Below are positions 4,989 to 51,931 of a DNA stretch of 64,000 nt, one piece after another. Numbering within the stretch: the first letter of the stretch is position 1; each line of letters starts with the position of its first letter. The stretch is from positions 2,791 through 66,790 of the forward strand of contig JAWOFA010000034.1 of the NCBI GenBank assembly GCA_046482505.1, in the 5' to 3' direction. The stretch comes from Desulfuromonadaceae bacterium. GTDB lineage: Bacteria > Desulfobacterota > Desulfuromonadia > Desulfuromonadales > Desulfuromonadaceae. The position numbers and the translations under genes were made by a program. The notes under the pieces are model-generated. The model did not search any database. It had not been told where the DNA came from and was given only the letters and a program-made list of their open reading frames with translations.

Positions 4989-5009
4989 TTGCCCCTGGAG
5001 TGAAAATAT

Positions 5010-5210
5010 ATGCAACAAAATGTAGATCAGGATACCGTGAACGGCATGACCGTGCCTATGGATCTGATGGTATGCCCCAAGTGCAGAGGAGCACTCGAAG
5101 CTCGAGAGATTGAAGCAAAACCCCACCTGAGTTGCGCAGCATGTAAGCTCGCATATCCGGTAAGGGATGGTATCCCTCTGATGTTGCAGGATGAAGCGGT
5201 AAAACTCTAA
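5010..5210 (+). CDS. Trm112/UPF0434 (YcaR) family zinc-ribbon protein
   Basis: 66-aa ORF with CPKC...CAAC and a YPVRDGIPLML tail. Same position after lpxK as ycaR in enterobacteria. The true start may be an internal ATG (5046 or 5058). Confidence 0.8.
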   Translation: MQQNVDQDTVNGMTVPMDLMVCPKCRGALEAREIEAKPHLSCAACKLAYPVRDGIPLMLQDEAVKL

Positions 5211-6256
5211 TGCCTGGAGAGAAGCTACATAGCGCAAACAAGATTCTGGTACGCGGGACTAACTGGATCGGAGATGCGGTCATGACTACGCCGGCGCTGA
5301 TGGCCTTGCGTGCCGGGTGCCCGGATGCAGAAATTGTGTTGCTCACCAACCCACTGGTAGCGCCTCTGTTTAAGCACCATCCCGCGGTAGACCGGGTGCT
5401 GGTATACGCACGTAAAGGAAAACATCGGGGGCTACGCGGGTTTTACCGCATGGTGCGCGAGCTCCGCCGGGAAAACTTTGATGCGGCACTGCTGTTGCAA
5501 AATGCCATAGAAGCGGCATTGCTCACATTTGCTGCCCGCATCCCGTATCGCGCCGGATATCCAACCGATGTACGGCGGCTGCTCCTGAGCGATCCGGTGA
5601 ACCTGAATCCGGGGGACAAAACACTTCACCATACCGAGTACTATCTTACTCTGCTACGCCGGTTGGGCTTTGCCACCCCGCAGACAAGCCTGTGCCTCCA
5701 CGTTACTCCAGCGGAACTGGACTGGGCTCGAACCACGCTGGAGAGCAACAATGTAATTGCGTTGAACCCGGGGGCAGCCTATGGTTCGGCGAAACGCTGG
5801 TTTCCCGAGCGCTTTGCTGCGGTGGCAGATACCCTGGCACAGCGTTACGGCGCCACCATTCTCCTTACCGGAGGCCCGGGAGAGCGTGAAATAGGGGAAG
5901 AAATAGGTGCATTTATGCAGAGTGACTCCATCAATATGGTGGGGAAAACCGATGTACGTCAGATGATGGCACTGCTTGCCTCCAGCCGCCTGCTTATCAC
6001 TAATGACTCTGGCCCCATGCATGTAGCTGCAGCCTTTGACGTTCCCATTGTGGCGGTGTTTGGTCCAACAGATCACACCACCACCTCACCTGCATCGGAA
6101 ACGGTCGAAATTGTGCGTAAGGAGGTGGATTGTGCGCCGTGCCTGTTGCGCCAGTGCCCTACGGATCATCGCTGCATGAAAAATATCACCCCTGATGATG
6201 TCATTGCAGCGGCCATTAAACTGCTGGAAAAAGTAGATGAAGATTCTGATCGTTAA
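5210..6256 (+). CDS. waaF: ADP-heptose--LPS heptosyltransferase II (GT9)
   Basis: 348 aa with N-terminus ILVRGTNWIGDAVMTTPAL and NDSGPMHVAAA motif. The ATG overlaps the previous stop (TAATG). Confidence 0.8.
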   Translation: MPGEKLHSANKILVRGTNWIGDAVMTTPALMALRAGCPDAEIVLLTNPLVAPLFKHHPAVDRVLVYARKGKHRGLRGFYRMVRELRRENFDAALLLQNAIEAALLTFAARIPYRAGYPTDVRRLLLSDPVNLNPGDKTLHHTEYYLTLLRRLGFATPQTSLCLHVTPAELDWARTTLESNNVIALNPGAAYGSAKRWFPERFAAVADTLAQRYGATILLTGGPGEREIGEEIGAFMQSDSINMVGKTDVRQMMALLASSRLLITNDSGPMHVAAAFDVPIVAVFGPTDHTTTSPASETVEIVRKEVDCAPCLLRQCPTDHRCMKNITPDDVIAAAIKLLEKVDEDSDR

Positions 6257-16275: not shown

Positions 16276-16812
16276 ATGCTCTTACATGCATGCTGTGCCC
16301 CTTGCAGCTCTGCTGTAGTGGAAAGGCTTGCAACTGACTACGCCATCACCATTTACTTTTACAATCCCAATATCCATCCGCGTTCGGAATTTATTAAGCG
16401 CCGTGATGAGTTGCAGCACTGGTGTGACCAGATTGCAGGAATATCTTGTATCGTTTCTGATTATATCCCTGAAGAGTGGATGGAACAGATTCGCGGTCTG
16501 GAACAGGAGCCTGAGCGGGGCAGGCGGTGTAATCGCTGTTTCCGTCTGCGTCTGCAACATGCCGCAGAGTATGCCAGCGTGCATAATTATGACCTGTTTA
16601 CCACTGTTCTTTCTATTTCTCCGCATAAACGTCACACGCACATTAACCGTCTCGGTCTGGCCCTTGCGCACCATTATGGGGTCGATTTCTACACCGCTAA
16701 TTTTAAAAAACAGAACGGTTATAAACGTAGTGTGGAGATCTCCAGAGAGCTTGGCTTTTATCGCCAAAATTACTGCGGGTGCGTGTTTTCAGCTAAGCAT
16801 GCACGATCTTAA
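16276..16812 (+). CDS. queH: epoxyqueuosine reductase QueH (DUF208)
   Basis: LLHACCAPCSS N-terminal Cys cluster plus a C-terminal YCGC motif. The ORF opens at 16066. ATG 16276 was chosen because QueH proteins start just before the CCAPC motif; ATG 16117 would overlap the divergent lpxH start. Confidence 0.75.
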   Translation: MLLHACCAPCSSAVVERLATDYAITIYFYNPNIHPRSEFIKRRDELQHWCDQIAGISCIVSDYIPEEWMEQIRGLEQEPERGRRCNRCFRLRLQHAAEYASVHNYDLFTTVLSISPHKRHTHINRLGLALAHHYGVDFYTANFKKQNGYKRSVEISRELGFYRQNYCGCVFSAKHARS

Positions 16813-16860
16813 CCTCCTGTTTGAAAGGCCCCTCTGTGTGGCGGGGTATTTAGAGTACAC

Positions 16861-18606
16861 ATGAGCGGTGAAGTGATAACCCAGAGGATCGTACGCGGCC
16901 GTTTGATAATGCAGTTGCTTGCTGCTGTAGTTATCGGTCTCGTCTCCGGATTGCTTGCTGTAGCATTTCGGTTTCTGCTGCTTGAAGGCACTGAGGTATT
17001 TTGGGGAGGATCATACAACCTGGTGGCAGCAGCGCGGGATCTCCCCTGGTATGCCGTGGTTGGTATCCCCGTCGGTGGTGGCCTTTTTCTGGGTCTGATA
17101 CTCTACCCCCGCGCACCAGATACCCGCGGCGCCGGAGTGCCAGATGTTATAGAGGCGATGGTGGAGCGTGGTGGGGATATCCATCATCGTACCACCCTGT
17201 ACAAGATGCTTGCTACTTTGATTTCACTCAGTTGCGGCGCTTCAGTCGGGCGTGAAGGTCCCATGGTCCACATTGGAGCATCCGTAGGCTCTGCGGTGGC
17301 ACGTGTGTTGCGCGTAGCGCAGGAATGGAAGATTGTTTTTCTCGCCTGTGGTGCAGCCGGAGCCATAGCTGCTACATTTAATGCACCCATGGCGGGGATG
17401 CTGTTTGCTGCTGAAATTATCCTCATTGATTTTCAGGTTGGATATCTGAGTCAGATTGCAGTTTCAGCAGTTACAGCTACCGTGGTGTCTCATCAATTTC
17501 TCGGCGATCTGCCAACCTTTGATGTCCCCTCCGTGTCATTGGTACACTACTGGGAGATCCCCGTGTTCCTTCTCCTGGGCCTGATTGCGGGGCTACTCTC
17601 CATAGCGATTATAAAACTCATCAGCCGCGTCGAAGACAGCTTCAACGCCGCAGCTGTCCCTCTCCAATTTCGTCCTGCACTTGGAGGAGTTATACTTGGT
17701 GCTGTGGCCTTGTGGTGTCCCCACGTTCTGGGTGTAGGCTATTTTACCATGAACCAGGCGCTGAGCACCGCATTGGTACCCACTCTGATATTTACCATCC
17801 TTATTGCCAAATTGGTTGCTACGGTGTGCTGTGTAGGATCGGGCTTTTCCGGTGGTGTTATCGCTCCCTCTCTGTTTGTGGGCGCTCTAATCGGAAGCTT
17901 GTGCGGCATATCCGTGCAAATGCTGACGCCGGATCAGGTGGAGGTTACCTCGGAAAGTCTGTATGTCATGGTGGGGATGGCGGCTATGTTCAGTGGTATT
18001 ACGTTGGCGCCTATCACTGCAATGTTTACCATATTTGAACTTACATACAACTTTGAGATTATTCTCCCACTGATGGTTGGATGTATTGCAAGTCTTACCG
18101 TGGTACAGGCCGGTTACGGTATATCCATATACGAAACCAGGCTGGTGCGCAAAGGGGTGCGGATTGTGCGAGGCAGGGATGTGAATCTACTCAGATCTCT
18201 AAAGATTTACGACTATATGGAGCCTAATTTTGAGAGTATCAGCCAGAGTCTTCCGTTAGGTCAAGTGGCAAAAATCGCCCAGGAAAGCCAATATCCCCAC
18301 TTTGTAGTCCACGACAAAGACAATCTGATGGTCGGTATGTTGTCCATGCACGATTTGAAAGCCTGTCTCGGCGAGATGGGAGAATTGGCATATCTCGTCC
18401 TTGCTTCGGAAATTATGACTCGTGACGTCATTACCATTACTCCTGACGACAGCCTGGAAAAGGCCTTTGAAGTGTTTAAGGGTAAGAATATCTCAACCAT
18501 ACCGGTGGTGAGCGTATACTCTCCGCGTAAGGTGATGGGGGTGCTTAAAAAAAGTGACCTCATTCGTGCGTACAGTAGAAATGTGCTCAAGTTTGATGTA
18601 AAGTAA
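16861..18606 (+). CDS. ClC family voltage-gated chloride channel/antiporter with C-terminal CBS pair
   Basis: 581 aa with selectivity-filter strings GASVGREGP and GSGFSGGVIAPS, and two CBS domains at the C-terminus. Confidence 0.9.
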   Translation: MSGEVITQRIVRGRLIMQLLAAVVIGLVSGLLAVAFRFLLLEGTEVFWGGSYNLVAAARDLPWYAVVGIPVGGGLFLGLILYPRAPDTRGAGVPDVIEAMVERGGDIHHRTTLYKMLATLISLSCGASVGREGPMVHIGASVGSAVARVLRVAQEWKIVFLACGAAGAIAATFNAPMAGMLFAAEIILIDFQVGYLSQIAVSAVTATVVSHQFLGDLPTFDVPSVSLVHYWEIPVFLLLGLIAGLLSIAIIKLISRVEDSFNAAAVPLQFRPALGGVILGAVALWCPHVLGVGYFTMNQALSTALVPTLIFTILIAKLVATVCCVGSGFSGGVIAPSLFVGALIGSLCGISVQMLTPDQVEVTSESLYVMVGMAAMFSGITLAPITAMFTIFELTYNFEIILPLMVGCIASLTVVQAGYGISIYETRLVRKGVRIVRGRDVNLLRSLKIYDYMEPNFESISQSLPLGQVAKIAQESQYPHFVVHDKDNLMVGMLSMHDLKACLGEMGELAYLVLASEIMTRDVITITPDDSLEKAFEVFKGKNISTIPVVSVYSPRKVMGVLKKSDLIRAYSRNVLKFDVK

Positions 18607-39419: not shown

Positions 39420-39935
39420 TTAGTTTGGATGTTTCTGCAGCAATTCCAGAATTCCCCGGATCAGATCGAGGGGAGTGGGAGGGCAGCCCTTGATGTAGGC
39501 ATCCACGGGGAGCACGTTGTCTACACCGCCACAACTGGCATAACTGGTGCCGAACTCTCCGCCGGTTGCGGCGCACTCCCCCATAGCCACAACCAGCTTC
39601 GGTGCCGGAGTACAGGCGTAGGTGCGTTTCAGGGCCTCCTGCATATGGCGGGATACCACCCCGGTCACCAGAAGCATATCCGCATGCCGGGGCGAGGCGA
39701 CAAAGTGGATCCCGAAGCGTTCGATATCGTAGAAACTGTTGTTGACCGCATGCATCTCCAATTCACACCCGTTACACGAGCCCGCATCCACCATGCGGAT
39801 TGCCAGACTCCCTCCGAATGTGGCGGCAATGTGACGCTGACATTCCCTGCCTAATTCGGCGATCTCCACTTCTGCTGTACTGATGGTTTCGGTCAACCGC
39901 CCGGTACGGCGGATTTTGTTTAATATGGAAAGCAT
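39420..39935 (-). CDS. NuoB/HycG-like [4Fe-4S] small subunit of Ehr-type complex
   Basis: 171 aa. The four cluster Cys are retained (GSCNGCE, GECA, GCPP). Confidence 0.85.
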   Translation of the reverse strand: MLSILNKIRRTGRLTETISTAEVEIAELGRECQRHIAATFGGSLAIRMVDAGSCNGCELEMHAVNNSFYDIERFGIHFVASPRHADMLLVTGVVSRHMQEALKRTYACTPAPKLVVAMGECAATGGEFGTSYASCGGVDNVLPVDAYIKGCPPTPLDLIRGILELLQKHPN

Positions 39936-39964
39936 ATCCTGTCATTCCTTCAGGTTGGACGTTT

Positions 39965-41590
39965 TTAAAGATCGTGACCGGAGTACGAACCGTTAACCGA
40001 TTTGTTACACACCGGGAAGTCGGGGATAATGTTCCCGTGGATCAGCCCCTCCAAAGCAGGCCAGTTGAGCCAGCTCGGATCGCGCGGGAAGTAACGTTCC
40101 ACATTACCCTCTGCATTGAGATGCACATACGCCACGGTTTCTCCGCGCCATCCTTCCACCAGCCCGACCCCGGCGCTATCTCGATACGCAGGTTTTTTGT
40201 CTGCCACAGCAGCCCCGTTCGGCAAGGTGTTAAGCAGGGTGGTTATCAGATCTGTGGCGATCAGGATTTCATCTCCACGCACCCGGGTGCGCTTTGCCAC
40301 ATCCCCCTCCGAATACACCGGCACTTTGACATCCAGTTCCTGATACGGAGGATAGGGAGCATCGCGGCGCAGATCATAGTCGATATTGCTGGCGCGTCCC
40401 ACATATCCCAGGGCTCCGAGACGGGCAGCCGTTTTGTGGGGCAGAATACCGGTGGTACGCAAACGATCCTGCAGGGAAGGATATTCGAGAATCATAGGCA
40501 TCAATTCCGCCACTTCGGTGCGCAACATCTCCTGCTCCTTCAGCATTGCGGCGATTCCATCCGCATCCAGATCGCAGCTTACTCCCCCCATTGCAATACA
40601 GTCCATCAGGAGACGATGGCCGAATAATTCCATATTCAAACGCTGGATACGTTCGCGCAGGGTACTGAACTGCACCATAGCGAAGGAAAAGCCCACATCA
40701 TTGCAGATTGCCCCGATGTCACCGCAGTGATTGGCTATCCGTTCGCGCTCTGCGAGTATCGCACGTAAGGCGAGGGCCCGCGGGGGAACTTCGACCTCCA
40801 GGGCATGCTCCACTGACTGCGCCGCCGCCCAGCTGTGGGCGATACAGCTGTCACCACTCACGCGTGCCGCGAGGCGGAGTAAGCCGGGGATATCGCGTCC
40901 CTCCGCAATCTTTTCAATCCCTTTATGCACATAGCCCAAATGGCCTTCGAGACGCAGCATATCTTCGCCAATGGTGTGAAAGCGAAAATGCCCCGGTTCG
41001 ATGATCCCCGCATGTACCGGCCCCACAGGAACCTCGTGAAGATCTTCCCCCTCCATCTTTACAAATGGATAGGTGTGGTCGGTGGGGGTGTCGGGGGCAG
41101 GATTGCCGGCTAAGGGGAATTCCTTCCGCAGCGGGAACACACCTGCACTCCACGCCTGATGCCGGGTCCAGCGGCGCGGATCGGGGTGCTCACTGAAGTG
41201 AATGCCTAACATATCCTGCACATGGCGTTCGGGACGGTCAGCATTGGGATACACCCCTGTCATGGAAGGGAGTTCTGGGTGCGTAGGCGGTATCTGAGTG
41301 GTCAGTAGAAGATGCCCCCTTTCGCCCCCCCACAGTGCCATCACCCATATTTTGTCACTGCGCTCCTCTGCCCACAGCGCACTCCAGCGCAGGTGGGAGT
41401 ATTTGCATACCGCAGCGGCATCGCTCCAGCACGGAGCATCAATGTTTACCACTACACACGCGCCCACAGGAACGCCATTGGGAGTGGAGGTGGTTAACGC
41501 AGCGGCATGCAGATGTTCTACACATTGATTTACATTGGAGTTTGTCTCCCGGATTTGTTGTAGGTAAGATGGTCTGTTGGAGTCGGGCAT
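39965..41590 (-). CDS. fused NuoC-NuoD / HycE-HyfG-like large subunit lacking all [NiFe] Cys ligands (EhrL-like)
   Basis: ORF extends to 41707; start chosen at ATG 41590 (ATGA overlap with the upstream gene). GPVHAGIIEPGHFRF is conserved. The L1 motif reads RVSGDSCIAH instead of RxCGxCxxxH. The C-terminus reads NGSYSGHDL instead of DPCxxCxxR. Confidence 0.85.
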   Translation of the reverse strand: MPDSNRPSYLQQIRETNSNVNQCVEHLHAAALTTSTPNGVPVGACVVVNIDAPCWSDAAAVCKYSHLRWSALWAEERSDKIWVMALWGGERGHLLLTTQIPPTHPELPSMTGVYPNADRPERHVQDMLGIHFSEHPDPRRWTRHQAWSAGVFPLRKEFPLAGNPAPDTPTDHTYPFVKMEGEDLHEVPVGPVHAGIIEPGHFRFHTIGEDMLRLEGHLGYVHKGIEKIAEGRDIPGLLRLAARVSGDSCIAHSWAAAQSVEHALEVEVPPRALALRAILAERERIANHCGDIGAICNDVGFSFAMVQFSTLRERIQRLNMELFGHRLLMDCIAMGGVSCDLDADGIAAMLKEQEMLRTEVAELMPMILEYPSLQDRLRTTGILPHKTAARLGALGYVGRASNIDYDLRRDAPYPPYQELDVKVPVYSEGDVAKRTRVRGDEILIATDLITTLLNTLPNGAAVADKKPAYRDSAGVGLVEGWRGETVAYVHLNAEGNVERYFPRDPSWLNWPALEGLIHGNIIPDFPVCNKSVNGSYSGHDL

Positions 41591-43080
41591 CAAAGTACCC
41601 CCTTTCCGCTGATCATAATCGTGGCCTGATCGATCCACCCTGCGAGGACATCGGGTACGGCAATCCCCAGCCACAGAATGATGCACAGATGCAGGGCCAC
41701 TGGCCACATGTTGGCTTTAATTCTTATCTGCCCCTTAGGACACGTACCAAACACCATGGGTTGAACATGGCGAAACAGACCAGCAAAGGCGATACTCAGA
41801 CCCACAAGCAGGGTGATAACGAGCCAGGGATAACTTTTAATCGTGGCACTGAAGAGAAGAAATTCACTGGTAAACACCCCGAACGGGGGGAGGCCGGCGA
41901 TGGCTACAGTGCCGATAAGCAGCCCCCAACCGACCTCTGGCTGAGTCTTTATAAGGCCGCGGATCTGATCAATAGATTGGGTTTTACATACCTGCGCGGC
42001 GTGTCCCACAGTGACAAAAATAGCCGATTTGGTCAGGGAGTGGACGATCATGTGCAGCAGGGCACCGAATGTAGCCAATGACCCGCCAATCCCGAAGGCA
42101 AAGGTGATCAAGCCCATGTGCTCGATGGATGAGTAGCTGAACATCCGCTTGATATCGCGCTGGCGGTGCAGAAGCAACCCCGCCACCAGAAACGAGAGGA
42201 GGCCAAACCCCATCATGATATGACCGGCAATGTTGGTGCCCAGCGCCGGATCAATGAGCATTTTGAAGCGCACCACCGCATACAGGGCGATGTTGAGCAA
42301 CAGGCCGGATAAAATGGCTGACATGGGTGTCGGGCCTTCACTATGCGCATCCGGGAGCCAGTTGTGCAGGGGCACCAGACCGATCTTGGTCCCGTAGCCC
42401 ACAATCAGGAATACAAAAGCGAGCAACAGCACGGTCGGTTCCAGCTCGGCGGCATGCGCATAGAGGACACTCCACATCAGCGCCTGACTTGAGTCGGGTA
42501 TGATCTGTACCGCAGCAAAGTAGATCAGGGTGGTGCCGAACAGTGCCTGCGCAATTCCGACGCCGCAGATGAGAAAGTACTTCCACCCAGCCTCAATTGA
42601 TTCCGGAGTGCGGTACAGGCTTACCAGCAATACCGTGGCCAGGGTGGCACCTTCCACCGCAACCTACAAAATACCCAGATTGTTGGTCATGAGGGCAAGG
42701 AGCATAGTGAACAGGAATCCCTGGTACATACTGTGATACAGGCGCATCCCCCCTGCTTTTACGCGCCCGATCTCCTGTTCATGCGCCATATAGGGGCCGG
42801 AAAACACCGCCGTAGTCATCCCTACAAAGGAGTTGAGGAGCACCAGATATACATTGAATGCGTCCACGTAGAAGAAGTTGGACGGGGTAATGATGGAGCC
42901 GGAATAAAATACCTCTACCGCCAGTTTGAATGAGGTGACAAAAGTAGCGATACAGATGAGTAGATTGAGTTTGCCCGCGAGGCGAAGATGGCCGCAGAAT
43001 GCCAGGATAGCGGCGCCTCCCAGCGGAAGGAGCAGGGTGAGATACAAGGCTGAATATGTGGAGAACATGAGATTCTGCAT
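41590..43080 (-). pseudogene. NuoN/HyfF-type antiporter-like subunit (EhrD-like) interrupted by one in-frame TAG
   Basis: Two same-frame ORFs, 42664-43080 (138 aa, ends ...MTNNLGIL-TAG) and 41590-42657 (355 aa). Reading through gives NNLGIL*VAVEGATLATVLL. The stop sits where HyfF/NuoN-type proteins have a conserved Trp (TGG). Confidence 0.7.
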
Positions 43081-43754
43081 CAGTCCACCTCTTTCAGGCG
43101 GTTGAGTTTATCTACATCGAGGGAGCCGAATTCGGTGCGAATCTGGAAAAAGAAGATCCCAAATAAAATAGCTGCCACCAGTACATCCAGCGCCACCCCC
43201 ATCTCTACCACCATGGGCATCCCATGGGTTGCGGCCACCGCAGCAAACATCAGACCGTTTTCCATGCACATGAATCCCACTACCTGCACTATCGCCTTGC
43301 GACGTGAAATGATCAGGAGCATCCCCAACAATATGATTGCCAGGGAGATGGCAATGGTGTTGCGCGTTGCGAGCATGGAGAGTTCGCGGATGGGAAGAAC
43401 CGTGTAGTAACTGAACAGCACCAGCGCCGCACCCCCGAGCATGATCAGCGTCGGGTTGCCCACTACCTCGACCTCGCGTTTGATATCCAGATGCGTCACC
43501 AGCTTTTGGAGTTGAATGGGGATGAAAAACACCTTCAGTCCCAGGGTGAGTGCGGCTGAGATGAGGAGGTGGTGACGCCCGTAGGTAAACGCAATGACCA
43601 GAGTAGTAGCGAATAGCAATCCGCCCTGAAGGGCAAATATGTGAATCAGGGTGAGCAAACGTGTCTGCGCCAGCAGCAGGAATGAGGTGAACAACATCAG
43701 TGCCGCCAGGGTCAGGATTAACTGCTCAGCCAGAGTAAATACGCTGATATCCAT
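43080..43754 (-). CDS. HyfE-like small membrane subunit (EhrC-like)
   Basis: 224 aa, about 7 TM helices and no cofactor motifs. ATGA overlaps at both ends with neighbouring subunits. Confidence 0.72.
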   Translation of the reverse strand: MDISVFTLAEQLILTLAALMLFTSFLLLAQTRLLTLIHIFALQGGLLFATTLVIAFTYGRHHLLISAALTLGLKVFFIPIQLQKLVTHLDIKREVEVVGNPTLIMLGGAALVLFSYYTVLPIRELSMLATRNTIAISLAIILLGMLLIISRRKAIVQVVGFMCMENGLMFAAVAATHGMPMVVEMGVALDVLVAAILFGIFFFQIRTEFGSLDVDKLNRLKEVD

Positions 43755-44698
43755 CAGTACACCTCCAGAACCACATGGCTGAGCATGCCGAGGAGAGAGA
43801 GAATAAACGCCAGACTTAAGAATTCCGGGGCACGGAAGAGGCGCATCTTAGCCAGCACCGATTCCGCCAATGCCAGAACCGCTCCAATAAGCATAAGCTT
43901 TGCCAGCATGCTCAGGGTGCCGATGGCGAGCGGGAGAACTCCCTGGTTCAAGGCGATCCCCCAGGGGATAAACAGATTGGTAATCAGGACGCCGAATATC
44001 AGCATCTTGAGCATGGATGCCCACTCCAGCAGGGCGAGATGACGCCCACTGTACTCAAGGATCATCGCTTCATGCACCATGGTCAATTCCAGGTGAGTAG
44101 CTGGATTGTCGATGGGGATGCGCCCGCATTCCGCCGTAGCCACGAGCAACAGACTCAAACCGGAAAAGATAAACGATGGATGAATCTGGAACGGCTGGGT
44201 CAGGGAGAAATGCACCATCGTATCCAGGTTGGTGCTGGCGAAGGTCATGGAGAGGGTGAAAATGGAGAGCAGCATCGCTGGCTCCGCCAGGGACGAAATG
44301 GTGACCTCGCGCGATGCTCCCATGCCGCCAAAAGCAGTGCCGATGTCCATCCCTGCGAGGCTGAGAAAGAAACGCCCGAGGGCAAAGAACCCCACCAGCA
44401 CAATGACATCCGCAATTGCCGCCGTGGGCAGACCGATGGCAAAAGCGGGTACCACCGAACACGCCAACACGGTAACGCTGAACACCAGATAGGGGGTGGC
44501 GCGAAACAGCGGGGAGGCATGGTGAGCCAGCACCACCTCTTTGCGCATCAGTTTCGCCAGGTCGCGGTAGGGTTGCCACGGAGCCGGACCACGGCGGCAT
44601 TGCAACTTGCACTTTACCCATTTAACCCACCCGCTCAACAGGGGGGCAAGAAGCAACAGTAAAAAGGTTTGCACAAAAGCGAGAATCCAGGCATTCAT
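43754..44698 (-). CDS. NuoH/HycD-like membrane subunit (EhrB-like)
   Basis: ORF extends to 44710; ATG 44698 gives an ATGA overlap with the upstream stop. RRGPAPWQPYRDLAKL loop and EAMILEYSG strings typical of NuoH/HycD. Confidence 0.85.
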   Translation of the reverse strand: MNAWILAFVQTFLLLLLAPLLSGWVKWVKCKLQCRRGPAPWQPYRDLAKLMRKEVVLAHHASPLFRATPYLVFSVTVLACSVVPAFAIGLPTAAIADVIVLVGFFALGRFFLSLAGMDIGTAFGGMGASREVTISSLAEPAMLLSIFTLSMTFASTNLDTMVHFSLTQPFQIHPSFIFSGLSLLLVATAECGRIPIDNPATHLELTMVHEAMILEYSGRHLALLEWASMLKMLIFGVLITNLFIPWGIALNQGVLPLAIGTLSMLAKLMLIGAVLALAESVLAKMRLFRAPEFLSLAFILSLLGMLSHVVLEVY

Positions 44699-46713
44699 GA
44701 CACAATCCACAGCATTACAATGAGGGTAAAAAAGGAATACGCCAGATAGGTGCGGATATTGCCGCCCTGCAGGCGGGCAACTATTCTGGCGCTGCGCTGG
44801 ATTAAGTGCCCAAGAGGCAGATAGAGTTTATCCCAGGCCCAGTCGCCGATGTGGATGCTGTAACGTCCTCCGTTCGTTGCTCCCGATGGGGGGGAGACCT
44901 TCTCCTCTATGGGCCAGACCGGGCGGAATATGCGGCGGATCGGCTGAGAAAAACTGGAGGCGGTATATTGGGTGCGTGCTTCGAGGGGGCCAAAGCCGCA
45001 GTCCCATGCAGGGCTGAAGCGCACCGGGGTCTGGCGTCGGCGGGGATGGAGCAAAACATATGCTCCGAGCCACGCAATACATATCCCGAACAGCACCATG
45101 GGGGCGCCGTACGAAGATGCGCGCGCGGAAACCGGGGTGAGCCACACCCAGGAATTCGTTTCAATAGAACTCAGCCCACTTCCGAGCCCACTTCCGAGTA
45201 GTGCAGTTGGTATCGCCTGCATGCTGTTGATCACCGGAGCGGGGAATATCCCCAGAAGAAGACAACTCAGGGCGAGAATAATCTGGCTTGTTTTCATCCC
45301 GGCAGAGACTTCATGGGCACGCAGCATATCCTCGGTGCGCGCCTGGCCCAAAAATGCAATCCCGTACACCTTTACAAAACACGCTGCTGCGAGCGCCCCG
45401 GTCAAGGCGAGCGCGGCGGCGGCTACCGCTACCATGGACTTTATCACCCCGCTTTCAAGTGCAGTTCCCTGCAGAGCGGTTTGAAACGTGAGCCATTCAG
45501 AGACAAAGCCGTTGAAGGGTGGAAGGGCAGAAATACTGATACATCCCACCAGAAAACATACCCCGGTAACAGGCATAAGGCGCAGAAGCCCGCCCATGTG
45601 ATTCAGGTCATGACGCCCGCTCTGCTGGATAACTGCGCCAGCCCCGAGGAATAGCAGACTTTTAAACAGTGCATGGTTCATACAGTGATACAGCGCGGCG
45701 ATGAGACCGAGTGCAGCGAGTGCGGGTATGTCGTTACTCGCAAACAGAAACGAGAGCCCGAGTCCCATATAGATGATGCCGATATTCTCGACACTGTGAT
45801 AGGCCAGAAGGCGTTTGAGGTCGTGTTGCATCAAGGCATACAGCACCCCCAGCAACGCTGATGCGCACCCGGCAAGAAGCACAATCACACCCCACTGCCA
45901 GTGAATTGTTCCGAGCAGGTCATAACAGAAACGGATGAACCCATACACAGCGACCTTAAGCATTACTCCCGACATCAGGGCGGAGATATGCGAGGGCGCC
46001 GCCGGATGTGCCTGGGGTAGCCACACATGGAGAGGAACGATTCCCGCCTTCATTCCAAAGCCGATAAAAGCAAGTCCGAAGGCGATATGTTCCCAATAGG
46101 GTGCAAGGGAGGCATTTTGCATGGCGCTGAAGGTGAAGCCATCTCCAGATCCCGCAAGCACCCCGAAACCGAGGAGGATGAAGAGTCCACCAGCCTGTGC
46201 CATGAGCAGGTAGATGAAAGCGGCCTGAGTGTTTTTCTCCTGGGAGTGATCGTGGACTACGAGGAAATAACTCGCTACAGACATCAATTCCCATGCGACC
46301 ATAAACGAAAACGCGTCAGCGGCCAGGATAACCAGGTACATCCCCGCAATAAACAAGCCGGTGAATACGGCAAGGGTTCGCGCAGAAGCTGTATCAGCGC
46401 CGCTGCAGATTACATAGTTTGGCCCGAACAGCGATACAATCGCACTTACCCCGCCCACCAATAAGAGGAAGAATCCGGCCAGCGGATCAAGATGCTGGTG
46501 GCTGTGGAGCCACGGTAAGCCAATGGGGAGAACTGCACTCACATCCGAGTTGGCGACCATAACCATTGCGCCCGCACAAGCGCACATAATGCCTGATACC
46601 CCCAGCAAGGCAAATGTAAGACGCACCCCGGTGTTGATGCTGCGTACCGGTAGTGGAGCTACTGCAGCGAGCAAAGCAACGATGACGCCAAAGTGGGCTA
46701 AGTGTAGATACAT
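44695..46713 (-). CDS. NuoL/HyfB/HycC-like antiporter-like membrane subunit (EhrA-like)
   Basis: 672 aa, polytopic. VAWELMSVASYFLV, LPQAHPAAPSHISALMSG and LAYHSVENIG motifs of the Mrp/NuoL family. Confidence 0.85.
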   Translation of the reverse strand: MYLHLAHFGVIVALLAAVAPLPVRSINTGVRLTFALLGVSGIMCACAGAMVMVANSDVSAVLPIGLPWLHSHQHLDPLAGFFLLLVGGVSAIVSLFGPNYVICSGADTASARTLAVFTGLFIAGMYLVILAADAFSFMVAWELMSVASYFLVVHDHSQEKNTQAAFIYLLMAQAGGLFILLGFGVLAGSGDGFTFSAMQNASLAPYWEHIAFGLAFIGFGMKAGIVPLHVWLPQAHPAAPSHISALMSGVMLKVAVYGFIRFCYDLLGTIHWQWGVIVLLAGCASALLGVLYALMQHDLKRLLAYHSVENIGIIYMGLGLSFLFASNDIPALAALGLIAALYHCMNHALFKSLLFLGAGAVIQQSGRHDLNHMGGLLRLMPVTGVCFLVGCISISALPPFNGFVSEWLTFQTALQGTALESGVIKSMVAVAAAALALTGALAAACFVKVYGIAFLGQARTEDMLRAHEVSAGMKTSQIILALSCLLLGIFPAPVINSMQAIPTALLGSGLGSGLSSIETNSWVWLTPVSARASSYGAPMVLFGICIAWLGAYVLLHPRRRQTPVRFSPAWDCGFGPLEARTQYTASSFSQPIRRIFRPVWPIEEKVSPPSGATNGGRYSIHIGDWAWDKLYLPLGHLIQRSARIVARLQGGNIRTYLAYSFFTLIVMLWIVS

Positions 46714-46757: not shown

Positions 46758-47438
46758 TTATGCGTTGTTGATGCGATTCTCCGCATCCTGTATGGCGGCA
46801 AAAACCTCATCGCGTCCCGGTTGCGTGGCCAGAAGCTGCCTTAAGGCAGCATCGCGCAGAATGTACTGAAGTACAGAGAGCAGATGTAGCTGGAGCCGTA
46901 AAGAGGGTGACACCACAATAATCAGAGTATGAACCGGTTTGCTGTCCAGCGCTCCATACTCAACCGGATGTTCCAGAAAGCAGATATTCACTTTGGCACG
47001 GGTGAGATGGTCCAGAACCGCATTGCGTGGGTGGGGCAGGGCAATTCCGTCCCCGATGCCGGTTGATGCAAGCTCCTCGCGGATAATCAGCACCTTTTTC
47101 AACATCTCCAGATCAACTTCATCCGGCAGGCGTAAGTGACTTACCGCGTCAGCGATGACCTCATCTCTGGAGTTTCCGGCAACCCGGTACACGATGCCGC
47201 CGGCGTTGAGAGCATCGGCAAGTTTGGGCAGCGGTTCCTTTTCCCGTCCACATAACTCAAACGGTTCTTCAATCACATGGCGCCGTTTTGATGTGGCCCA
47301 GTCGAGCAGTTCTGCTCGTTTAAATCTGTAACTTCCGTGTACCTTATAGGTAGGGACCAGATTGCGTTTGATCCAGCGGTAGACAGTTTTTTCGGATACG
47401 GACAACAGCCTCGCGGTCTCTTTTACGTTTACGTACAT
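46758..47438 (-). CDS. excisionase-type HTH + PTS EIIA(type 2/Ntr-like) fusion regulator
   Basis: 226 aa. N-terminal VKETARLLSVSEKTVYRWIKRNLVPTYKVHGSYRFKRAELLDWA (Xis/MerR-type HTH). C-terminal EIIA-2 domain with phosphorylatable His in GIGDGIALPHPR. It lies 44 nt upstream of the first Ehr gene on the same strand. Confidence 0.8.
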   Translation of the reverse strand: MYVNVKETARLLSVSEKTVYRWIKRNLVPTYKVHGSYRFKRAELLDWATSKRRHVIEEPFELCGREKEPLPKLADALNAGGIVYRVAGNSRDEVIADAVSHLRLPDEVDLEMLKKVLIIREELASTGIGDGIALPHPRNAVLDHLTRAKVNICFLEHPVEYGALDSKPVHTLIIVVSPSLRLQLHLLSVLQYILRDAALRQLLATQPGRDEVFAAIQDAENRINNA

Positions 47439-47450
47439 ATATCTCCTCTT

Positions 47451-47466
47451 TTGTCAAATTTGACAA
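47451..47466. promoter_or_regulatory. perfect 16-bp palindrome TTGTCAAATTTGACAA (candidate operator)
   Basis: Read directly from the sequence. It lies 12 nt upstream of the regulator start codon, abutting its AAGAGGAG RBS. A third TTGACA half-site is at 47471-47476. Confidence 0.5.
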
Positions 47467-47544: not shown

Positions 47545-47634
47545 CACAGTAGCTAAATAGCTGTGTTGATATATATTGATAAGTTTTTTATGCGCCTGAA
47601 TAGTGCAATTTATAAACATCAAAAAGGGGGTTCC

Positions 47635-48576
47635 ATGTATACTTTTGGTCCTGTACCCTCCCGCCGTCTCGGACAAAGCCTGGGAATTAATAATATCCCG
47701 CCTAAATACTGCAGTTACGCCTGTGTGTATTGCCAATTAGGGCGGGCAATCCGGCTTGTTCAGATGCCCGAAGAGTTTTACCATCCCATGGCAGTGGTAA
47801 AAGCAGTACAAGAGAAACTCGATGTTCTCCACCTCTCAGGACAACATGTAGACTATCTAACAATTGTGGCGGACGGTGAACCGACCCTGGATCTGCATCT
47901 GAGAGAATTGATTGATGCCCTGCAGGGTACCAATCTTCCAGTTGCAGTCATAACCAACGGAACCATGCTGCAATTTCCGCAAGTGCGCACTGCGCTCTCA
48001 AAAGCAAACTGGGTTTCGGTGAAGGTTGACAGTGTTGATGAGAGCACGTGGCGAAGAATTGATCGACCCGCTAAAGGTTTGCATTTGGACAAAATACTTT
48101 ACGGTATTGATAAATTTGCCGCAGAATTTTCCGGTACTCTGGTAACCGAAACCATGCTGGTGTCAGATTGCAACACCGATGAACAAACTCTCGGAAAGAC
48201 GGCATGTTATATCAGAAAACTTAATCCTGAATGTGCATACTTAAGTGCGCCGGTTCGCCCGCCGGCAGAAAACTGGGTTGAAGTTCCTTCACCTGAAATA
48301 TGCAACCGGGCGTTCCAGATCTTTGATTCACACATTGAAAGGGTGGAGTATCTGCTGGGATACGAGGGAAACGCGTTTGCTCATAGCGGAGATCCGGTTG
48401 AAGATGTTCTCAGTATTACCGCCGTACATCCCATGCGTGAAGATGCCTTAGAAGCACTTCTGCAACGACAGGGGGCAGATTTTGCTGTGGTGGATAATCT
48501 GATACAGCAGGGGTTATTGAAGTGTACGCCATATGCGGGGAACCGTTTTTATGCCCGCGTATTGAGACGAAGTTGA
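47635..48576 (+). CDS. radical SAM protein of unknown function (COG0731-like)
   Basis: ORF 47563-48576; start ATG 47635 preceded by AAAAAGGGGG. FGPVPSRRLGQSLGINNIPPKYCSYACVYCQLG (CxxxCxxC) and a GEPTL motif. Confidence 0.8.
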   Translation: MYTFGPVPSRRLGQSLGINNIPPKYCSYACVYCQLGRAIRLVQMPEEFYHPMAVVKAVQEKLDVLHLSGQHVDYLTIVADGEPTLDLHLRELIDALQGTNLPVAVITNGTMLQFPQVRTALSKANWVSVKVDSVDESTWRRIDRPAKGLHLDKILYGIDKFAAEFSGTLVTETMLVSDCNTDEQTLGKTACYIRKLNPECAYLSAPVRPPAENWVEVPSPEICNRAFQIFDSHIERVEYLLGYEGNAFAHSGDPVEDVLSITAVHPMREDALEALLQRQGADFAVVDNLIQQGLLKCTPYAGNRFYARVLRRS

Positions 48577-48722: not shown

Positions 48723-49541
48723 TTGAACGTTTTCTCCTGTGTTTTAACATTTATCGGCATGCTTGCTTTGCTGTGTGCATTGTGGCCGGTAGCCAGAATT
48801 CGAAAAATCCTTCCTGAGCCGGCTCTTATCCGGGCATGGAATGTGTTGTCAATTTTTATTCTCTTATTTATCGGAGGGTATTTTTTATATCTTCTTGTTT
48901 CATGTGCGACTCACGAATCCATGGGAGAGATGATCGTTCCGGTGGTCTTTTTCTTCGGTGGAATTTTTGTGTTTATTGTGTGCCGTCTCTTTGATACTAC
49001 CGCAACGAAACTGGTAGATTTCAAGCGTTTGGAGTATGAAAGTATTCATGATCCACTAACGGGGATATTCAACCGACGTCATATGCAGCACAGTCTTGAA
49101 TCTCAGGCGGCGTTAGCACGCCGCAATAACACATCGTTAGCACTGTTGCTCATAGATCTGGATCATTTTAAAGAGGTTAACGACCAGTACGGTCATCTGT
49201 GTGGCGATGGTGTTTTGCGTCAGGTGACGGATACGATTGTGTCTCTGGTTAAACGCGATATCGATATGGTATTCAGATACGGTGGAGAGGAGTTTCTGGT
49301 AATGCTGCCTCAAACACCGCTGGAAGGCGCAGTCGTCCTGGCGGAAAAGATACGCGCCAGTATTGCGGAATCGGTGTTTGAAGTGGAATGCCAGGATGGT
49401 TTTATCCAGGTGGACTGCAGTGTCAGTATTGGTGTTGTAGTATACGATCCTGCCAAACAGAATATTATGCAATGTGTGGCACAAGCGGATGCTAAATTGT
49501 ATCAGGCAAAGGAAAATGGACGTAATCAGGTTGTGAGTTGA
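48723..49541 (+). CDS. membrane-anchored diguanylate cyclase (GGDEF)
   Basis: 272 aa with three N-terminal TM helices. DLDHFKEVNDQYGHLCGD, intact RYGGEEF active site and an RDID I-site. Confidence 0.85.
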   Translation: MNVFSCVLTFIGMLALLCALWPVARIRKILPEPALIRAWNVLSIFILLFIGGYFLYLLVSCATHESMGEMIVPVVFFFGGIFVFIVCRLFDTTATKLVDFKRLEYESIHDPLTGIFNRRHMQHSLESQAALARRNNTSLALLLIDLDHFKEVNDQYGHLCGDGVLRQVTDTIVSLVKRDIDMVFRYGGEEFLVMLPQTPLEGAVVLAEKIRASIAESVFEVECQDGFIQVDCSVSIGVVVYDPAKQNIMQCVAQADAKLYQAKENGRNQVVS

Positions 49542-49604
49542 AAGCTGCATCTCAAGGCTCCCCAACCCATCTAATAATCCTATCAGGTAATAGGGGCAGA
49601 ACAC

Positions 49605-50522
49605 GTGGATATCCGTCGTCTGGAAATTTTTTGTGCTGTTGTTGATAAAGGTAGTTTTACCCGTGCTGCAGATGCAGTATTTATTTCACAGCCTTCAGTA
49701 AGCGAAAATATCCGCATTCTGGAGCAGCAGCTGGGTGAAAAACTGGTCGATCGTCTTGGCCGGCAGGCACATCCTACCCATGCTGGGAAAATACTGTACA
49801 AATACGCGCGCAAGATGATCCAAATTCAAAACGATGCCAAACAGGCAATTAGCAGCTATCAGGGCAATCTAACCGGTCTTATGAGTGTGGGCGCCAGTAC
49901 GGTGCCCGGCGCTTTTCTGCTCCCGGGATTGCTGCAGAGCTTTAAACAGCTGTATCCGCAGGCTCAGTTGCAGTTACTTATCTCCGGCAGTGCTCGGGTT
50001 GTAGATGATGTTCTGAATGGAACCCTGGAACTGGGGCTGGTGGGAAGCAAACCCAGGGATCAACGCCTTGTGCATGAAAGAGTGTTTAATGATGAGCTTC
50101 AACTCGTGGTACATCCTGATCATCCATTCGCTTCAAGGAAGGAAGTTAATGCAGGAGAGTTGCTTGATGTCCCCTTTGTGATGCGTGAATATGGATCAGG
50201 TACCCGAACAGAAATGAGTGCGGCACTAAAGGATGCTGAACTGGATGCGGGACAATTGCGCGTTATCGCAGATGTGGGAAGTAATGAGGCCGTGCGCGAA
50301 GCGGTTAAAAGCGGGATAGGGGTTGCTATCCTTTCTGCGCTGGCTGTACGCGATGATATCGGGCGTAATAAGTTAGCAGCAGTGGGTATAAATGGGGTTA
50401 AAATGCCGCGCTCTTTCTATCTTATCCATCGCAGTGGGCGTCAGCATAGCCCTCTCGCTGCAGCGTTCCACGCGCATGTGTTAGAAGAGCTTGGGCGCGA
50501 GAATTCCGAGCTTCAGGGTTAG
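49605..50522 (+). CDS. LysR family transcriptional regulator
   Basis: 305 aa, GTG start. HTH (LEIFCAVVDKGSFTRAADAVFISQPSVSENIRILE) plus a LysR substrate-binding domain. Confidence 0.88.
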   Translation: MDIRRLEIFCAVVDKGSFTRAADAVFISQPSVSENIRILEQQLGEKLVDRLGRQAHPTHAGKILYKYARKMIQIQNDAKQAISSYQGNLTGLMSVGASTVPGAFLLPGLLQSFKQLYPQAQLQLLISGSARVVDDVLNGTLELGLVGSKPRDQRLVHERVFNDELQLVVHPDHPFASRKEVNAGELLDVPFVMREYGSGTRTEMSAALKDAELDAGQLRVIADVGSNEAVREAVKSGIGVAILSALAVRDDIGRNKLAAVGINGVKMPRSFYLIHRSGRQHSPLAAAFHAHVLEELGRENSELQG

Positions 50523-50524
50523 AG

Positions 50525-51931
50525 TCAGAACTCGATGCCCAGGCGCTTTATCTTCTCCACCATGGTGGTGCGCTTTATATTAAGCATAGCTGCCGCCTTT
50601 GATTTTACTCCCGCACTGTTCACCAGCGCCTGACGTATCCATTCCCTTTCAATCTGCTGAATCTGTGCCGGCATGTCTAAGCCCTCTGCAGGTAAAGTAG
50701 CAGGAACTTGTTTTTGCTGGCGTTTTACTCCGGATATGTGCGGAGGCAACTCGTCGACCCCTATTATGTCCTTGTCGCACAACGCTGCGGTGCGTTCAAT
50801 GATATTTTCTAACTCACGCACATTCCCCGGCCACGGATATTCCTCCAATATTTCAAAGACTTCTTTGGCAAAACTGAGTTGTCCACATTTAAGCTGGTTG
50901 CAACTCTTTTTAAGAAAGTGCCGCGCCAGGATGGAGATATCTTCTTTGCGTTCGCGCAGGGGAGGTAGATTGATAGGAATAACGTTGAGGCGGTAGAACA
51001 GATCTTCGCGAAATGTTCCATCGGTTATCATCTCTTCGAGGTTGGTGTTAGTTGCAGAGATGATGCGAATATTGAGTTTGATTGAATGATTCCCCCCCAC
51101 AGGCTCGACTTCTTGCTCCTGCAGCACCCGTAAAAGCTTTAATTGCAGGGGAACCGGCATGGTGCCGATCTCATCCAGAAATATAGTGCCACCGTTGGCC
51201 TGTTCAAAGCGTCCCGGCTTGGTTTTTATTGCCCCTGTAAACGAGCCACGCATGTGACCGAATAACTCACTTTCAAGCAGATCCTGCGGGATGGCGCCGC
51301 AGTTGATAGCCACAAAGGGCTTGTCCTGCCTGGGTCCGTTGTAGTGCAGTGCGCGCGCTACCAACTCCTTGCCCGTCCCGGATTCTCCCAGAATCAGAAT
51401 AGACGAATCAGTGTCGACTACCTTCTCCATACGGGTGAAAACCTTCTGGAGGGCTGTGCTTGTGCCGATAATATTAGCAAAACTGTGCCTGTTGTGGAGT
51501 TGTTGACGCAGGAGCTTGTTTTCCTGGATTAGTTTTTGTTTCTCCAGTGATTTTGCAATTATCAGTTTCAATTTGTCGATATTCAGTGGCTTGGTGATAT
51601 AATCATAGGCACCATTTTTCATCGCCTCTACAGCGGTTTCGGCTGAAGCGTTTCCTGTTATGAGGATTACATTGGTGAGGGGGGAGTGCTCCTGTATATG
51701 CTTCAGGATCTCAAGACCATCTACTCCGGGAAGCATTAGGTCTGTAATCACTACCGCGTAGGTGTTTTGTGCCAGAATTCGAATAGCGTCTTCGCCACTG
51801 CGGGCGTTGGTTACTCCGTAGCCGGCTCGTTGCAGAACAGTGTGCAGCACCTTGTTGCTCTGCACGTCATCATCAACTAACAGAATCTGTATTTGTGCAT
51901 CCACTGCTGTTCTCCGTAAATGTAAAGTCAA
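50525..51931 (-). CDS. sigma-54-dependent response regulator (NtrC family: REC-AAA+-Fis HTH)
   Basis: REC (ILLVDDD, ITDLMLPGVDG). AAA+ with Walker A GESGTGKE, GAFTGA-like GSFTGA and ESELFGH. C-terminal HTH. The start is uncertain (TTG 51931 or a downstream GTG). Confidence 0.9.
   Translation of the reverse strand: MTLHLRRTAVDAQIQILLVDDDVQSNKVLHTVLQRAGYGVTNARSGEDAIRILAQNTYAVVITDLMLPGVDGLEILKHIQEHSPLTNVILITGNASAETAVEAMKNGAYDYITKPLNIDKLKLIIAKSLEKQKLIQENKLLRQQLHNRHSFANIIGTSTALQKVFTRMEKVVDTDSSILILGESGTGKELVARALHYNGPRQDKPFVAINCGAIPQDLLESELFGHMRGSFTGAIKTKPGRFEQANGGTIFLDEIGTMPVPLQLKLLRVLQEQEVEPVGGNHSIKLNIRIISATNTNLEEMITDGTFREDLFYRLNVIPINLPPLRERKEDISILARHFLKKSCNQLKCGQLSFAKEVFEILEEYPWPGNVRELENIIERTAALCDKDIIGVDELPPHISGVKRQQKQVPATLPAEGLDMPAQIQQIEREWIRQALVNSAGVKSKAAAMLNIKRTTMVEKIKRLGIEF

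Follow-up and report, generated by a model that had tools for sequence, protein, structure and literature searches.

A six-gene Ehr-type complex without nickel-iron ligands, and a private stop codon in its ehrD, in a Desulfuromonadaceae genome

A six-gene operon on contig JAWOFA010000034.1, part of a metagenome-assembled genome (MAG) of a Desulfuromonadaceae bacterium, almost certainly encodes an energy-converting-hydrogenase-related (Ehr) complex. It occupies positions 46713–39420 on the minus strand of the 64,000-nt stretch analysed here (the window, to which all coordinates refer) and reads ehrA-B-C-D-L-S. The explanation that we favour, with somewhat more confidence than doubt, is that the Ehr-type complex is a selected and probably redox-coupled ion-translocating machine, and that ehrD carries a private nonsense change in this genome.

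Ehr complexes are defined by a group 4-related large subunit lacking the motifs RxCGxCxxxH and DPCxxCxxH/R, a NuoB-like subunit, and syntenic NuoH-, HyfE- and HyfB/F-like subunits (PMC4378227, PMC6349859, PMC10284858). According to passages in PMC4758237, PMC7894505, and PMC6349859, the name was introduced in Geobacter (Coppi 2005) and generalized by Marreiros et al. (2013). Further Ehr complexes have been reported in Sulfobacillus, Methylacidiphilum, comammox Nitrospira, and ammonia-oxidizing archaea, as well as in Margulisbacteria and Saganbacteria, for which a hypothesis linking formate dehydrogenase (FDH) and Ehr has been put forward. The present locus displays the homology of the large subunit, Cys-less forms of both motifs, a NuoB/HycG-like partner, and the syntenic membrane subunits. 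Thus, every feature by which the literature defines Ehr supports the identity proposed in a first-pass annotation of the sequence.

Results

Six tightly packed genes encode an Ehr-type complex

Profile searches with Pfam and NCBIfam assigned the six co-directional minus-strand genes to families. ehrA (44695..46713) encodes a HyfB/NuoL-like antiporter-type subunit of 672 amino acids (Proton_antipo_M, 7e-54), followed by ehrB (43754..44710) for a HycD/NuoH-like membrane anchor of 318 amino acids (NADHdh, 2e-36), and ehrC (43080..43754) for a HyfE-like membrane subunit of 224 amino acids with a NuoK-like C-terminal part. ehrD (41590..43080) comprises 496 sense codons for a HyfF/NuoM-N-like antiporter-type subunit and is interrupted by a stop at codon 139. 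The last two genes encode EhrL (39965..41590), a fused NuoC-NuoD/HycE-like large subunit of 541 amino acids without [NiFe] ligands, and EhrS (39420..39935), a NuoB/HycG-like small subunit of 171 amino acids with four cluster Cys (Oxidored_q6, 5e-32). Adjacent genes overlap at four junctions, some of them by the 1 nt that stop and start codon share, and a single pair is separated by 29 nt. The operon holds no electron-input gene of the Fer4/HycF/NuoI or HycB/HyfA type, for which the junctions leave no space. The order, families, and span of the six genes are as described in the first-pass annotation, and its statement that a NuoI/HycF-type ferredoxin subunit is missing is borne out by our analysis of open reading frames (ORFs) and Pfam domains; its HyfF-like gene, however, is not one intact ORF owing to the in-frame TAG.

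The large subunit has lost all four nickel-iron ligands

EhrL carries the Pfam domains Complex1_30kDa and Complex1_49kDa together with a weak match to NiFeSe_Hases, and its HMMER matches are to HycE (7z0s_E, E=8e-62), MbhL (9e-37), and Nqo4 (9e-31). In the alignment with HycE, the L1-equivalent segment RVSGDSCIAH (residues 243–252; 40835..40864, minus strand) lies under RVCGICGFAH, and SVNGSYSG lies under SLDPCYSC. MbhL places the same L1 segment under RMCGICSFSH. The L2-equivalent segment NGSYSGHDL-stop (residues 533–541; 39968..39994, minus strand) aligns under DPCYSCTDR of HycE. HycE C241, C244, C531, and C534 correspond to EhrL S245, S248, S535, and G538, with a 12-residue offset of the 7Z0S chain. 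As both alignments have Ser/Ser/Ser/Gly in the ligand positions, none of the four [NiFe] Cys is left. The first-pass annotation had read the two replaced motifs from the translation at exactly these coordinates, and alignment uncovered no Cys that its manual register might have missed. With each of the four Cys replaced, EhrL is, judged from its sequence, unable to ligate Ni-Fe, which upholds the earlier claim that the complex cannot be a [NiFe] hydrogenase.

Moreover, EhrL lacks a C-terminal extension. Its last residue, L541, is equivalent to HycE R537, which we take to be the residue after which the HycI protease cuts. As EhrL ends at this position, it would need no C-terminal processing.

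Relatives of EhrL were collected from 1.84 billion representatives of 50%-identity clusters. Among the best 150, 130 cover all four ligand columns; 92 of these carry no Cys there, 14 carry one, two carry three, and 22 carry four. The one-Cys relatives mostly keep the first L1 Cys (RxCGDS). EhrL sits in the large Cys-less clade and not among the four-Cys relatives. The latter (RxCGxCxxxH and ELCYxCxDR) are 34–43% identical to EhrL, share the GPxHAGIIEPGHFRF loop and the INKSF motif, and end at ...DR/DL without an extension, like EhrL, but differ from it by keeping all four ligand Cys. They are probably HydDB group 4f, the group named as the hydrogenases nearest to Ehr (PMC10284858). Taken by themselves, the relatives of EhrL form a graded series of Cys content at the four ligand columns.

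These comparisons bear on the possibility that the operon encodes a genuine group 4 [NiFe] hydrogenase of the Hyf, Hyc, or 4f type and that the loss of Cys is an alignment artefact. The NCBIfam and Pfam names "hydrogenase 4 subunit B/F" and the weak NiFeSe_Hases match would speak for it. In contrast, HycE and MbhL independently give the same residues at the ligand columns, true four-Cys relatives are clearly separable in the same alignment, and the locus has no HycF or HycB, no C-terminal extension, and no hyp or protease genes in the window. We consider a hydrogenase virtually excluded; at the level of sequence, it is refuted.

The former nickel-iron pocket is remodelled and invariant

Conservation was read from the 120 closest EhrL homologues and from 80 related genome loci taken with 10-kb flanks, which span Desulfuromonadales, sulfur-/iron-oxidizing or methanotrophic Gamma- and Betaproteobacteria, and Methylomirabilis. 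Residues implicated in coupling were picked from the FHL (formate hydrogenlyase) structure paper (PMC9474812) and mapped onto the alignments. EhrL retains H193 and E198 in the β1-β2 loop, the canopy Arg R482, and the proton-path residues H288, E441, and R399. In place of the canopy Asp, a residue that hydrogenases and complex I strictly conserve, it has an invariant Asn533, and D247, C528, and D540 are new family-invariant residues lining the former Ni-Fe site. All 80 loci have R243, D247, C528, N533, G538, and D540; S245 is found in 78/80 and S535 in 77/80. All 120 closest homologues share RVSGD[S/T] and N[G]SY[S/A]G.DL. Two GTDB loci have a Cys at the S245 column. C249, which directly follows the second lost ligand, was considered as a shifted ligand and rejected: It is not conserved, being Thr in 82% and Thr or Ser in 97% of the homologues.

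An AlphaFold2 (AF2) monomer model of EhrL (pLDDT 79, pTM 0.84) has HycE (7z0s_E) as its best structural match in Foldseek, with a TM-score of 0.80. pLDDT falls below 50 at residues 182–223 and 521–541, while the remainder of the subunit is confident. These two segments, the β1-β2 loop GPVHAGIIEPGHFRF and the C-terminal NKSVNGSYSGHDL, are also the two most invariant in sequence, and they correspond to interface elements in FHL. Low model confidence in invariant segments is consistent with inter-subunit interface or pocket elements.

The remodelled pocket could also be read as a rebuilt active site for another cofactor or small substrate, to which the EhrS [4Fe-4S] cluster would pass electrons directly. 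Such a site would comprise D247, C528, N533, and D540 together with the retained H193, E198, R482, and H288. We regard this reading as rather unlikely.

The small subunit and the membrane arm keep the residues of a coupled complex

EhrS matches HycG (E=1.5e-33) and MbhJ (2e-32) with its Cys in register. C54, C57, C121, and C151 follow the hydrogenase-type CxxC...C...C pattern rather than the tandem Cys of complex I, and all four are invariant in 71–75 loci. By these alignments, the four Cys for a single proximal [4Fe-4S] cluster of the hydrogenase type are all kept in EhrS, just as the first-pass annotation had listed them for the NuoB-like subunit.

For five of the subunits, the best solved relative is the corresponding chain of 7Z0S, while that of EhrD is MbhH of the Pyrococcus MBH. 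EhrA scores 801 bits against NCBIfam NF005086 (cut-off 667) and matches HycC (7z0s_C) at E=2e-64. It retains the Glu of transmembrane helix (TM) 5, the Lys of TM7, TM8, and TM11, and the Glu of TM12, as well as C572 in the C-terminal ND3-like loop, the equivalent of HycC C537; E142, K222, K253, K351, E406, and C572 are invariant in 58–63 related loci. EhrB matches HycD (7z0s_D) at E=1e-39 and keeps the E-channel: R113, E135, E143, E194, E214, and F127 correspond to HycD R108, E130, E138, E189, E206, and F122. The E-channel residues and F127 are invariant in 66–67 loci. EhrC is the most conserved subunit, being 95% identical to its counterpart in locus L001; its matches to NF008556 of NCBIfam (7e-27) and Oxidored_q2 of Pfam (2e-5) stay below the curated cut-offs. 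In EhrD, the Glu of TM5 and TM12 (E143 and E406) and the Lys of TM7 and TM11 (K232 and K351) are invariant in 74–78 loci. Taken together, the coupling residues mapped in EhrL and in the membrane arm show no variation in 58–80 loci.

The Ehr family is under purifying selection

The six-gene order is kept in about 70 of the 80 loci. Compared with the nearest species (L001 and L005), the ratio of non-synonymous to synonymous substitution rates (dN/dS) is 0.03–0.10 for all six genes, at a dS above 1. Compared with the conspecific assembly L081, we counted 55 codons with synonymous and 6 with non-synonymous differences; the stop in ehrD is among the latter. In Geobacter sulfurreducens, all Ehr subunits have been detected and were more abundant on formate (PMC7894505). 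Purifying selection, synteny, the conserved replacement motifs, and the wider Cys-less neighbourhood argue that the Ehr family is alive and under selection rather than a decaying relic.

A non-functional hydrogenase relic would nevertheless explain the lost catalytic site and the nonsense codon in ehrD, and one study, which reports ehrA-2 and ehrB as hot spots of mutation in laboratory evolution, calls Ehr non-functional (PMC13194489). Against decay stand the low dN/dS values, motifs and coupling residues that are invariant across orders and classes, the preserved six-gene synteny, the detection of subunits in proteomes, and a stop that is private to one assembly. For the family, decay is already contradicted, and the selection estimates contradict the verdict of PMC13194489; for the operon itself, we hold it to be highly improbable.

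A private stop codon interrupts ehrD

The in-frame TAG at 42664..42666 (minus strand) takes the place of an invariant Trp codon TGG, four codons ahead of the TM5 Glu, and leaves ehrD in two parts of 138 and 355 codons; the translation around it reads NNLGIL*VAVEGATL. Against NF005045 (cut-off 543), these fragments match positions 3–130 and 134–484 with 136 and 569 bits, and NCBI annotates them as two separate proteins (MFO7830794-801 range). TGG stands at this codon in 74/74 related loci, and Trp occupies the position in ten members of the 90% cluster. Two assemblies of the same species, L081 (GCA_051745105.1) and L083 (SRR31818012), which are 98.7–99.0% identical at the nucleotide level, also read TGG. 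The lesion is therefore a private G-to-A change at position 42665. Recoding, for example to pyrrolysine, was rejected, as TAG is a normal stop that ends 17 of the 60 ORFs of the window and the conspecific assemblies have TGG.

That the change is a real allele, i.e., a recent loss of function, appears likely. A weaker but appreciable possibility is an intact operon in which the TAG arose from an error in sequencing or in the consensus. Because the window belongs to a MAG, the change may have been introduced during assembly, which counts against the nonsense part of our explanation. Moreover, both same-species assemblies read TGG, and the rest of ehrD shows no decay, with a dN/dS of 0.034 and only two other amino acid differences from L081. 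On the other side, the change is a single clean transition and not a homopolymer or frameshift error, short-read assemblies seldom contain consensus errors in the form of such a transition, and NCBI kept ehrD as two genes. Two codons past the TAG there is a GTG with an AGG ahead of it, and re-initiation of the 355-codon remainder at this GTG is a speculation that the sequence permits. Barring a consensus error or such re-initiation, the sampled population probably has a crippled complex.

Ehr compared with related complexes

By published subunit names, the Ehr cluster of G. sulfurreducens (GSU0739-45) has the same subunit set, EhrA/B/C/D/L/S. Both [NiFe] motifs are lost there as well, a dedicated electron-input subunit is likewise missing, and the host lineage is again that of Desulfuromonadales and Geobacter relatives. 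Nothing essential differs, apart from the premature TAG in ehrD and a preceding HTH-EIIA(Ntr) gene at our locus. No Geobacter protein occurs among the 120 best matches to EhrL. The locus is an ordinary further member of Ehr in an expected lineage: The family has long been known and is very widespread, and Geobacter relatives are its classic hosts.

Hyf and FHL of Escherichia coli (HyfABCDEFGHI; HycBCDEFG, 7Z0S) agree with the locus in the fused NuoC-NuoD subunit and the CxxC pattern of the small subunit, in the E-channel and the ND3-loop Cys, and in the β1-β2 loop EPGHFR. In contrast to them, Ehr has no [NiFe] ligands, no HyfA/HycB, HyfH/HycF, HyfD, or FdhF, an Asn in place of the canopy Asp, no C-terminal extension of EhrL, and no maturation genes nearby in the window. 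The Q-module of complex I (NuoB/NuoCD/NuoH) has the fold, the loss of the four [NiFe] Cys, the canopy Arg/Lys, and the E-channel in common with Ehr, and the pair N287-H288 of EhrL corresponds to N185/H186 of NDUFS2. However, the quinone ligands His38 and Tyr87 of Nqo4 are Ile197 and Gly246 in EhrL, EhrS lacks the tandem Cys, the canopy Asp is Asn, and the operon is devoid of NuoI, NuoA/J, and NuoEFG.

Like Ehr, MBS is a group 4 descendant without hydrogenase activity, and it still couples redox chemistry to ion translocation (PMC8165549). Its proximal cluster is held by three Cys, and it possesses two vestigial Cys in MbsL, the subunit MbsN, and a full Mrp module (PMC8165549), whereas Ehr has a 4-Cys cluster, no Cys at the ligand columns, no MbsN-like gene, and a Hyf-type membrane arm. 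Relative to the Mrp antiporter, Ehr contains only MrpA/D-like (EhrA and EhrD) and NuoK-like (EhrC) relatives, plus the additional NuoB, NuoCD, and NuoH homologues.

MBS also provides the precedent for Ehr as a reductase of sulfane sulfur or another small oxidant at or near the proximal cluster, as it demonstrates that a group 4 descendant can lose [NiFe] and use this cluster catalytically (PMC8165549). Further, many hosts of the related loci are sulfur reducers, oxidizers, or disproportionators (Desulfuromonas, Desulfuromusa, Thiogranum, Thioploca, Sulfuricaulis), an impression gained from record titles without statistics. Yet the 3-Cys cluster with its open Fe, the vestigial Cys of MbsL, and the ferredoxin-binding MbsN all have no counterpart in Ehr, and Ehr also occurs in methanotrophs, nitrifiers, and ammonia-oxidizing archaea. 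We therefore judge this chemistry to be very unlikely.

A candidate regulator precedes the operon

A co-directional gene at 46758..47438 (minus strand), 44 nt upstream of ehrA, encodes a protein of 226 amino acids with HTH_17 (2e-14) and PTS-EIIA(Ntr)-type (PTS_EIIA_2, 3e-19) domains and the phosphorylatable-His motif GIALPH136. A gene of this type is found at the same place in six Desulfuromonad-type loci (L001, L002, L004, L005, L015, and L020) and is absent from the gamma- and betaproteobacterial loci among the 80. Its dN/dS is 0.05–0.06. The protein is a probable lineage-specific regulator, possibly co-transcribed with the ehr genes. A perfect 16-nt palindrome, TTGTCAAATTTGACAA (47451..47466), lies between a match to a sigma-70-like promoter (47513-47484) and the start codon of the regulator. 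L001 has an identical copy and L005 a degenerate one, and the palindrome looks like a candidate operator. Terminator and promoter scans gave background levels.

At 48723-51931, 1.3–4.5 kb upstream of the regulator/ehr unit, are genes for a GGDEF diguanylate cyclase, a LysR regulator, and a sigma-54-dependent response regulator. The sigma-54 activator itself spans 50525-51931, and a similar one lies upstream in L001, L002, L004, and L005. A sigma-54 promoter for ehr was considered and rejected, as the intergenic regions yielded no match and window-wide matches were at chance level. Divergent from the regulator/ehr unit, a radical SAM protein of 337 amino acids is encoded at 47563-48576 (plus strand). 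It has a weak, sub-threshold likeness to the viperin-like, TYW1, and MoaA families, and fragmentary matches to it occur near the operon in L002 and L015.

ORF clustering across the 10-kb flanks of the 80 loci revealed no recurrent neighbour beyond the six genes, including no conserved redox partner. A 16-locus group ("cluster 5") that appeared to recur proved to be an antisense artefact inside ehrB. When the other roughly 48 ORFs of the window were searched for Pfam domains, no hyp, hydrogenase endopeptidase, formate dehydrogenase, or second hydrogenase gene came up, which confirms what the first-pass annotation had said of formate dehydrogenase and maturation genes. These ORFs are housekeeping genes for lipopolysaccharide core synthesis, M16 peptidases, a ClC channel, RNase PH, Ndk, RlmN, pyruvate carboxylase, pilMNOPQ, and aroKB. 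Neither the Rfam scan nor the tRNA scan gave a match anywhere in the window. Two ORFs, 4656-5237 (minus strand, 193 amino acids) and 16328-16864 (plus strand, 178 amino acids), have no Pfam match at E≤0.001; the former adjoins heptosyltransferase genes and may be spurious.

Discussion

How the complex might couple redox chemistry to ion movement

The mechanism that we propose is tentative, its chance falling just short of even. The single Fe-S cluster of EhrS would be reached directly by a soluble carrier or by a partner enzyme encoded elsewhere. Its redox state would change charge or protonation in the remodelled pocket of EhrL, and this change would drive or gate the movement of H+ or Na+ through EhrB, EhrC, EhrA, and EhrD. 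The substrate would be neither H+/H2 nor a quinone bound in the fashion of complex I.

Several points weigh against this mechanism. It is tied to the sequence by conserved residues only, and the low-confidence segments of the EhrL model blur the geometry of the pocket. In EhrD, the TM8 position is Asn where MbhH and NuoM have Lys. With neither an electron wire of the HycF, HycB, or NuoI type nor a conserved neighbouring redox gene, the cluster might be only structural or regulatory. Added to this is the published description of Ehr as non-functional. Finally, no donor, acceptor, ion, or activity has been demonstrated for any Ehr complex in the literature up to 2026, which, in line with the first-pass annotation on substrate and role, still calls the function unknown (PMC7894505, PMC10284858).

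The missing electron-input subunit and redox partner gene would also suit a redox-independent, Mrp-like cation/proton antiporter, in which the hydrogenase-derived cap with its Fe-S cluster would have no more than a structural role, or that of a redox sensor or gate. The invariant antiporter-type residues point the same way, as does the EIIA(Ntr)-type regulator preceding the operon in Desulfuromonad loci; its family, known from PtsN of E. coli, is tied to the homeostasis of K+ and other ions. However, the invariant cluster Cys, the β1-β2 Glu and His, the canopy Arg, and the proton-path residues exceed the needs of a scaffold, and known Mrp antiporters work without a NuoB/NuoD-like cap (PMC8165549). 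An antiporter of this kind thus seems unlikely, although less so than a rebuilt active site or an MBS-like reductase, and we prefer the redox-coupled machine.

Implications for the Ehr family

In NCBI-type annotation, ehr genes appear as "hydrogenase 4 subunit B/F", "formate hydrogenlyase", or "NADH-quinone oxidoreductase subunit C". Because such pipeline names are misleading, metagenomic surveys can mistakenly ascribe a metabolism of H2 or formate to organisms in possession of Ehr only. The locus described here is no more testable than the tractable cluster of G. sulfurreducens, and its own ehrD appears to be knocked out. Its interest lies in the family, which is among the largest groups of complex I relatives without a known substrate: Of the nearest 50%-identity clusters, 130 cover all four ligand columns, and at least 92 of these are without any ligand Cys. 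Family-wide data, namely strong purifying selection, the invariant rebuilt pocket, and the retained coupling residues, argue for a working coupled machine and not a relic. If the pocket were indeed a rebuilt active site, Ehr would constitute a new catalytic class of complex I-type ion pump, widespread in sulfur-, iron-, methane-, and nitrogen-cycling bacteria.

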